In this document: piece by piece, positions 7,132-38,192 of the stretch
Layout of the letters: every line of letters begins with the position of its first letter
Numbering within the stretch: position 1 is the stretch's first letter
IMG/VR virus record: IMGVR_UViG_3300032053_000050
Location: 7,803 to 71,802 of that record
Strand: one strand, 5' to 3'
Length of the DNA: 64,000 nucleotides
Origin: a virus
The notes under the pieces: model-generated
What the model was told of the DNA's origin: nothing
What the model saw: only the letters and a program-made list of their open reading frames with translations
Database searches by the model: none
Program-made: the position numbers and the translations under genes

Positions 7132-8300
7132 TGAAAAATTTAGCTATAGTAGGTCTAGGGTTTGGGGATGAAGGTAAAGGTACAATAACTGATTATCTTT
7201 GTTCCCAATGTTCTAATCCATTAGTTATAAGATATTCCGGTGGACATCAAGCCGGTCATACCGTTTATTATAACAATAAACACCATATTTTTTCAAACTT
7301 TGGTTCAGGAACTTTACGAGGAGTTCCTACATTCTGGTCTAAATATTGTACAGTAGACCCTATAGGAATAATGAATGAACTTAGTGTTCTAATGAGTATA
7401 GGTATTTTTCAACCTAAATTATTTATTGATCCAGATAGCCCAATAACTACTCCTTATGATAAATTTTATAATCATAATACTGAAACTTCAAATCACCATG
7501 GAAGTTGTGGTGTAGGATATGGAGCTACTATTGAAAGAGAAGAAAAACATTATTCATTAACTTTCAGTGATTTATTTTATAGTGATATTTTTAAGATTAA
7601 GCTTAAAATGATTGAAAAATATTATTATAATATATTTGATAAAAATTATACACAATATCCATATCTTGATAATTCAATTCTAGATCAAATGATTAAAGAT
7701 TTTAATATATATTGTGATCAATTAAAACAATTATCTTTTATTGAACAAAAATCATTATGTGAAGTAATTTATTCAGACTATATTTTTGAAGGTGCTCAAG
7801 GAATTTTATTAGATCAAAATATGGGATTTTTTCCCCATGTATCTAGATCTAATTCAGGAACTAAAAATATTATTGAATTAATAGGAAAAACAAATCAAAA
7901 AGATATACATTATTATCTTGTAACACGTGCTTATCAAACTCGTCACGGTAATGGTCCTATGACTAATGATAAAAGAGGTCATAGTATTATTGAAAATCCT
8001 GATGAAACTAATATTAATAGAAAATGGCAAGGGAAATTTAGACGTTCATTGCTTGATTTAGATTTAATTCAATATGCTATTAATAAAGATGAAGGTCTTA
8101 GAAATTCTAAAAATAAAACATTAGTAGTTACGTGTTTAGACCATATGAAAAATGATTATAGATTTACACATAAAGGAGAAATAGTAGCATCAACTTCTGA
8201 AGAAGAATTTATAAAAGTTATTTCAAATATTTTAGGAATTTATATATTATTTATAAATGATTCTCCTGATTCTAAAACTTTTAAAAAAATATTCTTATGA
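7131..8300 (+). CDS. purA: Adenylosuccinate synthetase-like protein
   Basis: GLGFGDEGKG, RYSGGHQAGHT, GSCGVG, FEGAQGILLD, TRHGNGP. Confidence 0.85.
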   Translation: MKNLAIVGLGFGDEGKGTITDYLCSQCSNPLVIRYSGGHQAGHTVYYNNKHHIFSNFGSGTLRGVPTFWSKYCTVDPIGIMNELSVLMSIGIFQPKLFIDPDSPITTPYDKFYNHNTETSNHHGSCGVGYGATIEREEKHYSLTFSDLFYSDIFKIKLKMIEKYYYNIFDKNYTQYPYLDNSILDQMIKDFNIYCDQLKQLSFIEQKSLCEVIYSDYIFEGAQGILLDQNMGFFPHVSRSNSGTKNIIELIGKTNQKDIHYYLVTRAYQTRHGNGPMTNDKRGHSIIENPDETNINRKWQGKFRRSLLDLDLIQYAINKDEGLRNSKNKTLVVTCLDHMKNDYRFTHKGEIVASTSEEEFIKVISNILGIYILFINDSPDSKTFKKIFL

Positions 8301-17496: not shown

Positions 17497-17932
17497 ATTT
17501 TTAATAATATTTTAACAACAACAGTTGTTAATAGTTCTTTGAAATGTTTATATTTGTAAAAACAATTTATTATGGCAAGTAGTATAAAAGGTACATCAGG
17601 TGAAAGTTTAGCAGACGTAGTAAGAAACGTAAACGATACTTTAAAAGCAGCAGGAAAATTTGGATTGGAAGTAGAAACTATTGCAACAGCTTTATTATTT
17701 CTTAAAGAAAATCCAACAATGACAATAGAATATGCATTACATGTAGGACTTCAAGATTGGGATGTATGACATCATTTTATTTTTATATACCAAAAGATAT
17801 ATCAACACCTTATATTATAGATGTTAATAAATCAGATGGAAGAAAAATAATAGAATGGTTAAATGGAAATACAACGTTTTATCATTTTTTACAAAAACAA
17901 AGATTTGGCAAGCTATATAATATAATACGGCA

Positions 17933-18502: not shown

Positions 18503-18583
18503 AAGTTGTAGTAAGGTAAATGAGTTACTTCGCCGAACCATTAAATTCAGTTAAAATGACACTCAAACCAAATTTCTCAACTT
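18503..18583 (+). ncRNA. Y-like RNA 1 (minimal)
   Basis: aagttg-tagtaa...tgagt-tacttcg...actca...aaatttct-caactt. Confidence 0.75.
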
Positions 18584-26904: not shown

Positions 26905-26976
26905 TTGATTGTGGTAAAATTTGCGTTACTTCGAATTATGCAATTAGATTAATACGCAAATTAAATTTCCCAACAT
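26905..26976 (+). ncRNA. Y-like RNA 2 (minimal), upstream of the Ro60 locus
   Basis: ttg-tggtaa-aatttgcgt-tacttcg...acgcaaatt-aaatttcc-caa; covarying with other copies. Confidence 0.75.
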
Positions 26977-27065: not shown

Positions 27066-27677
27066 ATGGCAAATTTTAAACAAACATCTTACAAGTATAT
27101 CTATATTTATAGAATTATTAATTTAACAAATAAAAAATGTTATGTAGGTTTTCACGCAACTAATAATGAATATGAAAAAGACAATTATTTTGGAAGTGGA
27201 ATTTTAATTGATAAAGCAATTAAAAAATATGGAATTAATAATTTTGTTAAAGGAATAATTGAATATATTGATGTTAAAGAATGGAAAGAAAAAGAGTTAT
27301 TTTGGATAAAACAAATGAATTCGCATCTGAGTAAACATGGATATAATCAAACATGGGGAGGAGAAGGTTCTTTTGGATTAATTATGAGTGAAGAATCAAA
27401 AGAAAAATGTCGTATCGCAGCAAAAAATAAACCGGCGATTAAAGAAGAAACTAGACAAAAATTAGCAGATAAAGCGAAAGAACGAAAAATGTCTGATAAA
27501 TGTAAAGCAGCATTAATAAAATCTATAACTGGAAGAAAAAAATCTAAAGAAGAATTAAATAAAATATCTAGAAAAGATTGGAAACATTCTTTAGAAACAA
27601 AATCAAATATGAGTAAAAAAAGATTAGGGGTTAAGCGTGGCCCATATAAAAAACGCAAAATAATTTCTTTAATTTAA
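27066..27677 (+). CDS. GIY-YIG homing endonuclease with NUMOD3 repeats
   Basis: YIYRIINLTNKKCYVG, YFGSG, GYNQTWGG, KHSLETK. Confidence 0.9.
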   Translation: MANFKQTSYKYIYIYRIINLTNKKCYVGFHATNNEYEKDNYFGSGILIDKAIKKYGINNFVKGIIEYIDVKEWKEKELFWIKQMNSHLSKHGYNQTWGGEGSFGLIMSEESKEKCRIAAKNKPAIKEETRQKLADKAKERKMSDKCKAALIKSITGRKKSKEELNKISRKDWKHSLETKSNMSKKRLGVKRGPYKKRKIISLI

Positions 27678-27701: not shown

Positions 27702-29417
27702 ATGGCAAAATTTAATGAAAAAAGAATTTCTAAATCAGAAGTAAAACCTGCATTAACTCATCAAGGCGGCGCAGGTCTTACACAAAAAAGTGAGCATGAA
27801 TTAATTGGAATTTTAGCTACGGGAATACAAAATACGTACTATGAAAAAGAAACAGAACGTGAAATACGTTTTAAAGAAGTTTTTGCAAAAGTTGCGCAAA
27901 AAAATGCATTATTCGCAGCAAAAGCTTTAATATATGCTCGTACTGTATTTGGTCAAAGAAGTGTAACTCATTATGGTGCTGTAGAAATTATACCATTTTT
28001 AAGTGGTAATGAAATAGCAAAAAAATTCTTTTCAAAAAGAGATAGAAAAGAAAATAAAGGAGGTATAGTTTATAGATTAGATGATATGGCTGAAATATTA
28101 GCATGTTATCAAGCTAAAAATGGAATTGATGCGCCTTTACCTAATGCTTTAAAAAAGGGATTTAAAGATGCTATAGAAAAAAGTGATGCATATCAGTTAG
28201 CAAAATACCAGATGAAGTCTCGTGGTGTAAGCCTTGTTGACATCGTTAACTTGGTTCGTCCTATACCTACTAAGATGAATGGAACCATTACTGTGACTGA
28301 AGAAGAATACCAGAAGGCTATCAAGGGAACTAAATTCGTTCCAGGACATAAGAAGTACAGAGCAGAATATGCAGAAATCCCTGTTCGTAATGAAAAAGGA
28401 ACTACTATTCCAGCACTTCATGCACTTGTTATCGGATTGCTTAAGCAGTTCAACACTGTTGAAGACAAGAACACCGAAGCAGGTAAGGTTGTAGCCGAAA
28501 AAGTTAAGAAGGGTGAAATCACTGCTGAACAGGCAACTGTTGAACTTAATGAAGCTAAGACTGACAACTATGTAGACCTTATTAAGACTAAGAAGATTGG
28601 GTACCTTGCATTACTTCGTAACGTACGTAACATTCTTAAGACCAATGATACTGCATTACTTGACATGGCTTGTGAACTTTTAGTTCAGAAGGACTTCATT
28701 GTTAAGTCACTTGTATGGCCTACTCAAATTGATGTAGCTTTAGAAATTATGACTCTTGAATTCTCTGGCGCGCAAATGGCAAAAGTTACTAAGGCTCTTG
28801 GACTCGCTTATGAATTAGCAATTCCTAATCTTGAACAACTTCTTCCAGAAGGTAAAACTGCAGTCGTATTCGATACTTCAGGTTCTATGGGAGGTGAGAA
28901 CCATATTTATCTTGATGCAAAAAAATCTATTAATAAAAAACCTGCTGATAAAGCTGCGCTTATAGCTGCAACTTTTGCCAAAGGAGTTAATGGAGATGTA
29001 TACCATTTTGGGTCTACTTCTGAACAAATTATAGGATGGAATCCAAATGATTCTGTTAATACTTTAAAACAGAAGTTTATGTCATATAACGGACGTTGTG
29101 GTCATGGAACAGACTTTGGAGCTTGCTTCAAATTATTTGAACACATGAATAAACAATATGATAGAATTATTCTTATTTCTGACGAACAAGATGGTTATGG
29201 AAATGTAGAAAGCAATTACAAAGGATATTGCCAAAAGTTTGGAACTCCATACGTGTATATCATAAACATATGTGGATATGCTGTAACTTCTCCTATAAAA
29301 AGTGGTGATAGAGTATTTCGTTTATACGGATACAATCAAGATTTATATGACAAAATAACTCAAATGGAAATAAATCCTCAGATTGTTATAGAAGAAATTA
29401 ACAAAATAGAAATTTAA
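27702..29417 (+). CDS. Ro60-like TROVE domain RNA-binding protein with C-terminal vWA
   Basis: YQLAKY, SLVDIVNL.RP, GYLALLRNVRNIL, VVFDTSGSM MIDAS, GTD, ILISDEQ. Confidence 0.9.
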   Translation: MAKFNEKRISKSEVKPALTHQGGAGLTQKSEHELIGILATGIQNTYYEKETEREIRFKEVFAKVAQKNALFAAKALIYARTVFGQRSVTHYGAVEIIPFLSGNEIAKKFFSKRDRKENKGGIVYRLDDMAEILACYQAKNGIDAPLPNALKKGFKDAIEKSDAYQLAKYQMKSRGVSLVDIVNLVRPIPTKMNGTITVTEEEYQKAIKGTKFVPGHKKYRAEYAEIPVRNEKGTTIPALHALVIGLLKQFNTVEDKNTEAGKVVAEKVKKGEITAEQATVELNEAKTDNYVDLIKTKKIGYLALLRNVRNILKTNDTALLDMACELLVQKDFIVKSLVWPTQIDVALEIMTLEFSGAQMAKVTKALGLAYELAIPNLEQLLPEGKTAVVFDTSGSMGGENHIYLDAKKSINKKPADKAALIAATFAKGVNGDVYHFGSTSEQIIGWNPNDSVNTLKQKFMSYNGRCGHGTDFGACFKLFEHMNKQYDRIILISDEQDGYGNVESNYKGYCQKFGTPYVYIINICGYAVTSPIKSGDRVFRLYGYNQDLYDKITQMEINPQIVIEEINKIEI

Positions 29418-29419
29418 TT

Positions 29420-30019
29420 TTAAAGGGAACCCAAAGTTCCCTTTATTTTTTTACCTTTGTTCCAAGGAACTCTTCCTTTCATGTTTTCACTCATTTTTTT
29501 GCGTGATTCTTTTGTATGATGTTTTCCATACATACCATTTTTTTCTCCTAAATTATTTATTTTATTTTTATTTCCTATTTTTCTTTTACATTCTTCAGAT
29601 CTAAGATGACCCTTACATCCTTTAACATTTATTAACTTTAATTTTTTTGTCATTTTTTCAATAGTTTCTTTACTGTAAATATTATGTTTTCCTTTATTCC
29701 ACGGTTCAACTCCGCGTGTTCCATTTCCGTATCCACTTTCAGAAATATTATAACCATTAGGATTAATTGTATTTTTTTCCTTTATCCAATATTCTTCTCG
29801 TTCATTTAATTGTTTTTCAGATACACAATATTCAATTATTTCTTTAATAAAAGTTTTTTTACTATATTTTTTTATAGCTTTATTTAATAATATCCCACTA
29901 CCAATATATTCATCTATTTCATCGTTTGACACATGTTGTCCCACATAACTTTTCCCTGTTATTAAATTTGTAGTAATATACACATACATATATTTAAAAA
30001 CTTTCTTTCGTTCTTTCAT
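29420..30019 (-). CDS. GIY-YIG homing endonuclease with NUMOD3 repeats
   Basis: YVYITTNLITGKSYVGQ, YIGSG, PNGYN, GMYGKHHTKES, PWNKG. Confidence 0.9.
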   Translation of the reverse strand: MKERKKVFKYMYVYITTNLITGKSYVGQHVSNDEIDEYIGSGILLNKAIKKYSKKTFIKEIIEYCVSEKQLNEREEYWIKEKNTINPNGYNISESGYGNGTRGVEPWNKGKHNIYSKETIEKMTKKLKLINVKGCKGHLRSEECKRKIGNKNKINNLGEKNGMYGKHHTKESRKKMSENMKGRVPWNKGKKIKGTLGSL

Positions 30020-36232: not shown

Positions 36233-36760
36233 TTATCTTTTGTATGGACCTCGTTTTTTTCCTAATCGAGATTTAGTCATTTTTAATCTTGTTTCTTCCG
36301 TTTTAGGTTTTTTCATTTTTTGTTTAGTTTCTTCTGAAAGATTATAATGTTCTTTGACAGTATTATCATAATTTAATTTACGAGAAATAGTACGTTTTTT
36401 TATCCATTCAGAAGTTTGTTTTTTTCCTTTTCTTGTTTTACTCATTTTTTCACGACTAAAAATACTATGAGAAGCTTTTTCTTTAATACCTCCTTTAGGA
36501 CTTATATTATATCCATTAGGAACTAAAGTATTATATTGTTGAATATATTTTTCTTGCGCATTAAAAGCATCTTCTTTAGTATCAAAAAATTCAAGAATTT
36601 CTCTTTTAAATTTGTTTATTCCATATTCATTCAAAGCATATTTAATGTATATACCACTTCCTACGTAAATATCTTCTAAATTATTAGTAGAATGATCACC
36701 TATATATTGTTTCCCATTGATAATATTTGTAGTTAAATAAACAAAATGAAATTTTTGCAT
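36233..36760 (-). CDS. GIY-YIG homing endonuclease
   Basis: FVYLTTNIINGKQYIG, YVGSG, PNGYNISPKGG. Confidence 0.9.
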   Translation of the reverse strand: MQKFHFVYLTTNIINGKQYIGDHSTNNLEDIYVGSGIYIKYALNEYGINKFKREILEFFDTKEDAFNAQEKYIQQYNTLVPNGYNISPKGGIKEKASHSIFSREKMSKTRKGKKQTSEWIKKRTISRKLNYDNTVKEHYNLSEETKQKMKKPKTEETRLKMTKSRLGKKRGPYKR

Positions 36761-36856
36761 AAAACATTGTTTTATTATTTATTTATACACCAAGTTAAAA
36801 CTTTCGATGTTTTATAAAATATAAATATAGAAAATAAAGTTCTTTGAATTTATAAT

Positions 36857-37121
36857 TAACTGTAGTAAATTTTGTGATACTTCGTATCCTTGCCGAAAGG
36901 CGAAAACCCGTCGATGGATGTCGATATTTATACTATGTATTTATACTATGTAAACTAAGCAACGCCAAGGGTTTGAGGTCTTCGGACTAATAAAACTGAG
37001 TGTAAGAAGGCTCGTAGGACGAAAAAATAACTCCTATACTTACAAGGAAGGCTGGCAGAAATCCTTAAAATCTCCGGAGAGTTAACTCCTAAAAAACGCA
37101 CAAAATAATAATTCTCAGTTA
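36857..37121 (+). ncRNA. Y-like RNA 3 carrying a roughly 210-nt multi-helix insert
   Basis: taactg-tagtaa-attttgtg-atacttcg ... cacaaaat-aataattct-cagtta; internal gcc-GAAA-ggc and gtc-TTCG-gac hairpins; preceded by promoter and boxA. Confidence 0.75.
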
Positions 37122-37171
37122 TATTTTAGTATTCTTCTTGCATACCGTAAGAACTGCTTAAGAATCATTTT

Positions 37172-37218
37172 AAACCGTAGTTAGGCACATTTAGTAGCCT
37201 TAACTACGGTTTTATTTT
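37172..37218 (+). terminator. Intrinsic terminator
   Basis: aaaccgtagtta...taactacggttttatttt. Confidence 0.8.
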
Positions 37219-37237
37219 GAATATATATAATAAACTT

Positions 37238-37354
37238 ATGAAATATTATGTTTATTTAACAACCAATCTTCTTAATGGAAAACAATATGTTGGAGAACGT
37301 TCTTGTAATTGCGAAATAGAAAATGATAAATATTTAGGAAGTGGTAGGATGTAA
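37238..37354 (+). pseudogene. Truncated GIY-YIG endonuclease N-terminus
   Basis: MKYYVYLTTNLLNGKQYVG...KYLGSGRM*. Confidence 0.8.
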
Positions 37355-37454
37355 TCCCGAAGGTACGGTGTCTTAGGCGTCTTACAATCACGTACAAGAC
37401 CAATAGTAATGAGGCGAGGACAATAAGAGACAACTTATAAAAACTCACTTCCTA
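37335..37454 (+). ncRNA. Candidate rod-like structured RNA
   Basis: taggaagtg/cacttccta closing stem, inner tgtct/agaca and gtctt/aagac; terminator at 37472-37507. Confidence 0.4.
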
Positions 37455-37796
37455 TTTTCTCGGCAAACAACAAAGGGTTAAGTCGCAAAGCGTCTTGACC
37501 CTTTTTTATTTAATATATACTAAAAAGTATATGACAAACAAATTCATAAAAGGATATGACAAACCATTTTTTGATGGTTTTGTTCCCTTAAAACCTTTAA
37601 CTTATACTATCGTTATAGTTTATATGGATGGGTATTCTACAGAAATACCGGGTATAGAATACCCGTGGGCTTATATGAATAAATTGAAACACAATGTTAA
37701 TATTAAAATATCATATATAAAAACTTAACAAAATTTTAATACTTAAATATTTTTAGTTTCTTTATTTTATATTATATTTGTATAAATGAATGTAGT

Positions 37797-38192
37797 ATGG
37801 AATTTTTGCAAAATTCAGTTAGAAATGACTTAATGATAGATGCTATTGAGGGTGGTAGTAATTATTGGTATTTACTTGGAGAAGATGCTACTAATACTAT
37901 AAGTAAATATCAAGGGCTTAAACTTCCTTTACATGGAGAATATTTTTATTCTACTTTTGCAGAAGCTATTATGCCGGCTATTGAAAAAGAAGAAAAAATA
38001 CCTATTCATGATATAGAATCTCCACATGAATTACTTGGAATACTTTCATTAGAAAGTATTAAGAGAGGTGAAGAAATAATGTTTGAACAATACCCTAAGC
38101 ATTTTGCAAATATCTTGAATGAAAATTCAGATGCAGAAACTGCTGATGTTTGGCTACAACTTTGTGTAATGGGTGAAATAGTATTCGGATAA
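37797..38192 (+). CDS. Hypothetical phage protein
   Basis: EGGSNYW...DAETADVWLQ....GEIVFG. Confidence 0.6.
   Translation: MEFLQNSVRNDLMIDAIEGGSNYWYLLGEDATNTISKYQGLKLPLHGEYFYSTFAEAIMPAIEKEEKIPIHDIESPHELLGILSLESIKRGEEIMFEQYPKHFANILNENSDAETADVWLQLCVMGEIVFG

Follow-up and report, generated by a model that had tools for sequence, protein, structure and literature searches.

The DNA analyzed here, referred to as the window, is a stretch of 64,000 nt from a virus (IMG/VR virus record IMGVR_UViG_3300032053_000050, positions 7,803 to 71,802 of that record). An RNA gene of this window, named RNA1, lies between two divergent GIY-YIG homing-endonuclease-like open reading frames (ORFs), in a gap of 480 nt, and a Ro60-like gene carrying TROVE and vWA domains is located upstream of it. 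An earlier note, made from the letters alone, had described this place as a Y stem carrying a large RNA domain with its own promoter, boxA and terminator. We conclude that RNA1 is almost certainly a real, conserved and structured non-coding RNA, encoded by an uncultured jumbo phage. The window is AT-rich (GC about 25%) and contains 26 tRNA genes and a permuted tmRNA, while the GC content reaches about 0.40 across 36900-37100 against about 0.25 in the flanks. The CheckV completeness of the 71.8-kb virus record is 18%, suggesting a phage genome of several hundred kb. From the promoter style, the host is presumably a member of the Bacteroidota.

The homologs of RNA1 were collected by pattern scans of viral and metagenome contigs, which gave 31 distinct full-length homologs of 212-322 nt. 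A first handle pattern returned 44 stretches from viral contigs, mostly by chance, among which about eight handle RNAs were recognized by eye and L040 was the one clear RNA1 homolog. Relatives of the TROVE gene of the window led to five records, and two of these, G005 and the complete 405-kb G009, share an identical 228-nt homolog. Two further patterns gave 25 viral and 57 metagenome stretches. Each 5' match was paired by script with a complementary 3' handle, which resulted in 55 elements (40 distinct), namely 7 small handle RNAs of 59-151 nt, 2 long elements and 31 elements of 197-322 nt. For 32 other 5' matches there was no 3' handle in reach; six were cut by contig ends and the remainder appeared chance-like. 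L081 (334 nt) and L107 (440 nt) were left out as chance, being coding-like, and L081 gave no handle RNA. L051:2572-2768, taken as a short homolog, was dropped because the covariance model of the 3' domain did not match it and instead matched L051:2788-2913, immediately upstream. It occupies the place of the second RNA of a tandem and was replaced by L051:2788-3014 (L051b), so that the total stays at 31. The patterns demand both the handle and its UACUUCG motif, so modules without a handle would be missed, and this weighs against the reading of RNA1 as a Y-RNA-like adaptor.

Three types were distinguished among the homologs: type A comprises RNA1 of the window plus 6 sequences, type B has 7 members whose 3' domain is shorter, and type C has 15 in which hairpin Pc is expanded; L093 and L051b fall outside all three. 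A single copy per genome was found in four of the five records searched by model, including the complete G009, and the fifth, G011, gave only a weak model match. On the metagenome contig L103 (359-846, minus strand) a type B and a type A copy stand in direct tandem, 8 nt apart, showing that the two types are paralogs able to coexist. Searches in other directions were negative. The handle pattern applied to one genome per bacterial and archaeal species gave four stretches, none with the 3' domain; blastn and megablast against deposited phage genomes gave no RNA1 match; records reached via the neighbouring ORF 37797-38189 gave RNA1 matches at chance level only; and the exact 18-mer of hairpin Pa was absent from viral contigs. 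Rfam gave nothing above threshold for RNA1, which has no family there; when the filters were made permissive, the only match inside it was a sub-threshold GP20-b.

All elements listed in the earlier note are present in the sequence where it placed them. The Y stem described there was confirmed as a handle of two helices closing 222 nt. Both helices covary among 30 homologs: position 3 of stem 1 is C-G in 18 and G-C in 11, and position 4 of stem 2 is C-G in 18, U-A in 11 and A-U in 1. The UACUUCG motif next to the handle is constant in the large homologs by construction, since the search patterns required it. It is present, or one base off, in four other handle RNAs of the window, described below.

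The strongest evidence for structure came from the 3' domain. A covariance model was built from the last 130 nt of 8 sequences (7 of type A and L093) with the structure specified by hand, and it gave 34 matches in 36 loci, with all types included. In 31 distinct rows, 97.6% of the cells of four nested helices (21 pairs) were standard pairs compared with 78.7% in shuffles, and 20 of the 21 pairs were changed on both sides. The covariation score was 0.458, versus 0.178 in shuffles (0 of 500 reached it) and 0.06-0.14 when the partners were slid; the alignment was fitted to the model structure and favours it, which counts against these values, and the margin is large. The helices Pd, (U)GUAAG/CUUAC(A), and Pe, (G)UAGGA/UCCUA(U), were paired in 98.8% and 96.0% of cells, respectively, with 11 of their 12 pairs changed on both sides, while Pg was paired in 100% with changes on both sides in 4/4 pairs. 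A hexamer GACGAA opens the Pe loop (37019-37024), and by eye 21 of 34 aligned rows retain it. It fits GNCGAA, the proposed Ro60-contact motif of bacterial Y RNAs, and may provide Ro60 with a second contact.

Between the Pd-Pe arm and Pg, covariation revealed an H-type pseudoknot that was absent from the helix list of the earlier note. Its stem S2 was paired in 96.1% of cells with all five pairs changed on both sides, and its loop 3 is A-rich. Native duplexes of stem S1 had a mean energy of -4.80 kcal/mol, whereas shuffled loops averaged -2.45 (standard deviation, sd, 0.29) and cross-combinations -3.70 (n = 27). Its variants were AAGGA/UCCUU, AAGGAU/AUCCUU, GAGG/CCUU, CGGU/ACCG, AAGGU/ACCUU, AAGAU/AUCUU, AAGU/ACUU and ACAG/CUGU; in the largest group of type C this stem is short and harder to discern. 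In total, five of the six helices named in the earlier note are kept in the homologs with compensatory changes, and its claim holds on this point of conservation. The folding energy gave no signal, with a minimum free energy z-score of only -0.70 and 44 of 200 shuffles folding equally well; RNA1 stands above chance by its composition and, above all, by conservation and covariation in homologs.

For the 5' domain, MAFFT alignments of the whole RNA and of this domain put the hairpins out of register and were excluded from the pair counts, which were instead taken from our own anchored scripts. Helix P3 joins the bases directly after UACUUCG to a UUUGCG-like segment. In 13 type A/B sequences its native duplex energy was -4.76 against -3.12 (sd 0.44) in shuffled sequences, with little covariation, and it is weaker in the window copy (-3.2). 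P3 is the nearest counterpart of the CCUUG/CAAGG helix proposed previously. The CCUUG of the window has two candidate CAAGG partners, but the second (37043-37047) belongs to the pseudoknot with UCCUU at 37062-37066, and the helix was retained in this altered form only. A tetraloop hairpin of the Pa type, with mostly GNRA or UNCG loops, was found in 30 of 31 homologs in 19 distinct stem/loop variants, compared with 8.8 (sd 2.3) of 31 in shuffles; Pa is paired by construction in the anchored scripts, and the evidence is its frequency versus shuffles together with the stem variety.

Hairpin Pc, ahead of AAAACUGAG, varies and yet stays paired (GGUC/GACU, GGAC/GUCC, GGUC-CUCG-GACU, GGC-UUCG-GCC), with long expanded stems in L139 and L150 and GGC-CCAC-GCC in a relative among the RNA-library contigs. 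It is also an expansion site, and a related insert of 50-90 nt (UGUCUAUGUUAAGUCAGG ... GGGCUUUUUUUCGG) is present in L139 (3836-4129) and in all type C sequences, e.g. L075 (7235-7544). The 13-nt tandem duplication reported previously is real, but it is private to the window copy, none being seen by eye in the other 13 type A/B sequences. It lies in the least conserved stretch and doubles a UACUAUG-like motif, which (window 36940-36948) recurs in the variable 5' stretch of many type A, B and C sequences. Two further pairings were rejected. The UACUAUG-like motif could on paper pair with the complementary GUAGUA in the handle, but no covariation was seen and L051b speaks against it, and pairing of AACUGAG (36994-37000) with the 3' handle showed no covariation in type C or L093.

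Table 1. Features of the RNA1 locus and the Ro60-like gene, in window coordinates.
Feature	Position	Strand	Basis or remark
Ro60-like gene (TROVE + vWA)	27702..29417	+	7.4 kb upstream of RNA1, same strand
Divergent GIY-YIG/NUMOD3 homing-endonuclease-like gene, upstream	36233..36760	-	Matches below Pfam cut-offs
Promoter-like region: AAGTTAAAAC (36792-36801) and AT-rich ATATAAATATAG (36819-36830)	36792..36830	+	Conserved upstream of type A/B homologs
boxA-like GTTCTTTGA	36839..36847	+	19 nt upstream of RNA1
RNA1 gene, 263 nt, handle 5' end to handle 3' end	36858..37120	+	31 distinct full-length homologs
Handle 5' strand: stem 1 AACUG-U-AG (36858-36865), conserved UAGUAA, stem 2 UUUUGUG (36870-36876)	36858..36876	+	Covariation
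UACUUCG motif	36878..36884	+	In the place of CGAA/GNCGAA of known Y RNAs
Helix P3 (36886-36891 with 36967-36972), enclosing Pa, Pb and variable stretch	36886..36972	+	Duplex energy
Hairpin Pa, GCC-GAAA-GGC	36892..36901	+	Tetraloop hairpin after UACUUCG
Hairpin Pb, GUCGAU-GGAU-GUCGAU	36910..36925	+	Hairpin with different stem at same place in type A/B, by eye
13-nt tandem duplication, ATTTATACTATGT x2, in variable stretch	36926..36951	+	Sequence
Hairpin Pc, GGUC-UUCG-GACU	36977..36988	+	Stem variants
Arm Pd (37001-37006/37039-37044) and Pe (37014-37019/37032-37037), asymmetric internal loop, loop CGAAAAAAUAAC	37001..37044	+	Covariation
H-type pseudoknot: S1 AAGGA (37044-37048)/UCCUU (37062-37066); S2 GG-C-AGA (37054-37059)/UCUCC (37071-37075)	37044..37075	+	Covariation
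Hairpin Pg, GGAG-AGUUAA-CUCC (37076-37089), then tail UAAAAAACG	37076..37098	+	Covariation
Handle 3' strand: CACAAAA (37099-37105), AAUUCU, CU-CAGUU (37114-37120)	37099..37120	+	Pairs with handle 5' strand
Terminator-like hairpin: 12-nt perfect inverted repeat (37172-37183/37201-37212), then TTTTATTTTG	37172..37219	+	Inverted-repeat analysis
Truncated GIY-YIG homing-endonuclease ORF, 38 codons, inserted in RNA2	37238..37354	+	Similarity to L094; weak SegE_GIY-YIG match
RNA2 3' part, intact, with 3' handle UUUUCUCGG (37455-37463) and terminator (37472-37507)	37355..37507	+	Alignment with RNA2 of G009 and L100

The transcription signals around RNA1 were supported to different degrees. BoxA is a mark of stable-RNA operons, and its presence ahead of RNA1 was well founded: GTTCTTTGR occurs 8 times in the window versus 1.25 expected, with none of 100 shuffles reaching 8, and in 28 of 30 homolog loci GTTCTTT is found 14-29 nt ahead of the RNA, one of the remaining loci being the second gene of a tandem pair. 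Sites of GTTCTTTGR were located at 17534, 18257, 18916, 36349, 36839 and 40680, and those on the plus strand are mostly before RNA genes or within RNA-gene blocks. The AAAACT..TATAAA promoter of the earlier note was not upheld as such, since it has no match to the sigma-70 consensus and promoter-like sites are not enriched (12 versus 17.1 expected). By eye, type A/B homologs have a TAAGTTAnAAAAC-like box and then a ATATATAAT-like AT-rich stretch ahead of boxA. As to the proposed terminator at 37172, the hairpin and the T-run are real, but the hairpin is built partly from the stump of another RNA gene; a simple terminator scan missed it because of its 17-nt loop.

That other gene is RNA2, a second and different large handle RNA into which most homologs enter 8-15 nt after RNA1 (e.g. 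L065 1190-1500 and L100 4060-4371, both on the minus strand), while the others have a plain terminator there. Relatives with 90-99% identity to 36989-37128 and to the RNA2 3' part were found on short contigs from four metatranscriptomic runs, and the loose ends of these contigs lead from RNA1 directly into the RNA2 handle. These runs belong to a single freshwater-sediment study and indicate presence in RNA libraries, which is no proof of a discrete transcript and weakens this support. No RNA-library contig covers 36600-36837 or 37144-37347; this gap is uninformative because both stretches are endonuclease-related and absent from relatives.

RNA2 of the window is split. Alignment with intact RNA2 of G009 and L100 showed that its first 11 handle bases, CCGTAGTTAGG (from 37175), remain, and that about 170 nt of foreign sequence replace its 5' half, form the 12-bp hairpin with the stump and carry a GIY-YIG fragment. 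The 38-codon ORF of this fragment has 68% identity over 34 aa to the N-terminus of the GIY-YIG protein of L094 (2-460, minus strand), where an intact gene is located at the same point of RNA2 after a similar hairpin. The 37172 hairpin is thus a by-product of homing-endonuclease insertion, as the RNA2 stump pairs with inserted sequence. The insertion just after conserved RNA2 handle sequence suggests that handle RNA genes are homing targets; the handle sequence itself may be the target, with the inserted cassette supplying the strand that pairs with the handle stump into a terminator. GIY-YIG genes also gather around the handle RNAs and the TROVE gene (37186-37354, 27066-27677, 29420-30019 and 36233-36760). 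In addition, the N-terminal DNA of the two GIY-YIG genes bracketing RNA1 forms a 44-nt inverted repeat with 84% complementarity (36704-36747/37245-37288), which could permit inversion or recombination.

The TROVE gene reached 29.9 bits with the Pfam TROVE model (cut-off 23), its vWA match being below the cut-off, and its protein matched the Ro60 chains 9KOP/9L5Y of Thermus phage phiLo with an E value of 7.8e-10. Orthologs with 61-77% identity are present in related records, and six of the eight RNA1-bearing records have one (the window, G009, G005, G010, G011 and G013), the other two being fragments of 9% and 15% completeness. In 4/4 records in which both positions are known, RNA1 follows the TROVE gene on the same strand at a distance of 7.0-12.3 kb. 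The handle is not restricted to RNA1: the elements at 18503, 26905, 41452 and 43373 of the window share it, with a 5' strand NNYUG-UAG/UGG-UAA, a second short helix followed by UACUUCG (two elements differ from it by one base), and a 3' strand AAUUUCU/C-C-CARNN. Both handle helices change in step between the window copies, and two of these four elements enclose tRNA-like T arms. The element at 26905 precedes the TROVE gene by about 800 nt, with an endonuclease gene between them, and in L080 less than 200 nt separate the end of a 100-nt handle RNA from a downstream TROVE gene of 64% identity. A tethering of RNA1 to Ro60 is suggested only by the synteny and the shared handle. As for RNA-repair genes, RtcB was found in 0/4 related phage records, and an RNA-ligase family passed its cut-off in one of the four but was missing from the complete genome, so that no consistent RNA-repair set emerges.

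On this evidence we lean, with modest confidence, towards RNA1 being a Y-RNA-like molecule with a large non-tRNA module, which would be a partner of Ro60 through its handle. The earlier claim of a large domain in a Y-type stem holds insofar as the handle is shared with small RNAs by the TROVE gene and the domain is conserved, but the Rfam models of Y RNA and YrlA do not match. Several results weigh against a Ro60 partnership. RNA1 has no match to the Rfam YrlA, Y_RNA or tRNA models at E values up to 10, and the tRNA-like handle RNAs of the window likewise match neither Y_RNA nor YrlA at E up to 10. The CGAA/GNCGAA motif is not kept, the window having CUUCGUA and only 2 of 30 homologs having CGAA. 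RNA1 is 7.4 kb from the TROVE gene compared with the distance of within 4 kb typical of YrlA, and only one of five further records with small handle RNAs, all of them fragments of 8-26%, gave a TROVE match. A less probable, though serious, alternative is that RNA1 is an independent structured RNA (a protein sponge, a ligand-binding pseudoknot or a ribozyme) whose handle is a generic processing, stability or packaging signal read by another factor. Besides the lack of a canonical CGAA and of a Y RNA model match, the alternative would account for handle RNAs being spread over the tRNA arrays without clustering at the TROVE gene, for the 7-12 kb between this gene and RNA1, and for the conserved core of the module, where a hairpin comes after a pseudoknot whose loop is A-rich and which resembles an autonomous aptamer-type fold. 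Against it stand the order of TROVE gene and then RNA1 on the same strand in 4/4 records and the presence of handle RNAs immediately ahead of that gene in both L080 and the window. Moreover, a terminal stem, an internal loop and a variable module form the defining design of Y RNAs (PMC4201824; PMC12135203).

Two other explanations concern the setting of the gene. RNA1 is promoter-proximal, contains a pseudoknot and has a terminator-like hairpin downstream, as would a cis-acting leader (a riboswitch or attenuator) of the following genes. What follows is, however, RNA2 in most homologs, a terminator in others and an endonuclease insertion in the window and L094, and the 5' and 3' ends of RNA1 pair together as in a discrete stable RNA, behind a boxA that marks stable-RNA operons, so we regard a leader as very improbable. 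The inverted GIY-YIG sequences on both sides, with their 44-nt inverted repeat, might instead mark RNA1 as a relic or a piece of a mobile element, intron or homing-endonuclease cassette. This is the least credible explanation, since the L040 and G009 homologs have no adjacent endonuclease gene, group I and II intron models do not match, and the endonuclease fragment splits RNA2 rather than RNA1.

The signals in the DNA are consistent with the following course. Transcription would start from a phage-specific promoter, read through the boxA leader with antitermination as in rRNA and tRNA operons, and stop at the hairpin 37172-37219, after which the transcript would presumably be trimmed to the base of the terminal stem. 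The handle (UAGUAA and then UACUUCG, opposite AAUUCU) would dock on the phage Ro60 ring, and the module would give the Ro60 particle a second binding surface for a protein or RNA, unlike that of tRNA-like Y RNAs. A more specific version is doubtful at present, namely that the 222-nt module is an autonomous pseudoknot aptamer or scaffold, conceivably a ribozyme, mounted on the phage Ro60 ring as one of an interchangeable guide set with the tRNA-like handle RNAs. If that were true, guide modules would retarget one Ro60 particle and a recruited host exoribonuclease to different RNA substrates during infection, and RNA1 would be the first Y RNA with a large, independently folded effector half. The analysis gave no indication of the catalytic activity considered in the earlier note.

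What is new is a Y-type handle closing a large module supported by covariation and conserved across a clade of 300-400-kb phages encoding Ro60. If the handle binds Ro60, the modular Y RNA design can carry whole folded RNA domains, and the use of the Ro60 particle to the virus becomes accessible to a tractable test. If Ro60 is not involved, RNA1 still represents a new structured phage RNA family, which has 31 members and a defined consensus and is absent from Rfam.

Among the RNA families compared, GP20-b (RF03003) was the only Rfam model touching RNA1, at 37053-37100, which covers the 3' half of the pseudoknot, Pg and the A-rich tail. It was rejected as a relative, with 20.3 bits against a gathering threshold of 36.2 (E = 0.37), its first hairpin missing and matches in 0/14 homolog loci. 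GOLLD and ROOL are large, ornate phage and prophage RNAs that frequently occur close to tRNA genes. RNA1 resembles them as a many-helix phage non-coding RNA among tRNA genes and differs in having no match to their Rfam models, in being much smaller and in being closed by a Y-type handle. The modules of known Y RNAs are small, consisting of a tRNA mimic, a pyrimidine-rich loop or a hairpin, and what they recruit is known in few cases. ARAGORN detected no tRNA-like element in 36858-37120.

The closest likeness is to the Y RNAs of bacteria and phages (PMC4201824; PMC12135203). Bacteria have several Y RNAs with different modules, polycistronic with tRNA (PMC4201824); the motif near the 5' end is GNCGAAN0-1G in bacteria and GGUCCGA in animals (PMC4201824; PMC12135203); and YrlA is typically within 4 kb of a Ro60 ortholog (Chen et al. 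2014, PMC4201824). Like YrlA, YrlB, Yrn1 and Yrn2 (PMC4201824), RNA1 has a terminal stem, an internal loop, a short 5' motif and a variable module. As judged by its paired 5' and 3' ends enclosing a variable module, it has the Y RNA architecture, with covariation in both handle helices (n = 30). As with bacterial Y RNAs, several such RNAs occur per genome, made alongside tRNAs, with the Ro60 gene on the same strand. Unlike them, RNA1 has a boxA leader, and where they carry a tRNA mimic or simple hairpin it has a 222-nt module comprising a pseudoknot and at least eight helices. No large-module Y-like phage RNA was found in the literature, the supplements of Chen et al. 2014 (phage YrlA hits) lying outside the coverage, and the module appears to be without a described relative. 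Since the motif and covariance-model tests failed and the distance is borderline, RNA1 is placed as working like a Y RNA and not as a proven member. A phage Ro60 is known to bind phage Y-like RNAs that contain a bulge motif and whose 5' and 3' ends form a stem (PMC12135203). The RNAs of phiLo, Yrl1 and Yrl2, are small stem-bulge-stem RNAs with CGAA directly upstream of the Ro60 gene, while RNA1 is larger, without CGAA and farther from it. As in phiLo, where Yrl1 and Yrl2 are bound by phiRo60 (PMC12135203), a phage Y-like RNA is accompanied by a phage TROVE/vWA protein, with more than one such RNA per phage.

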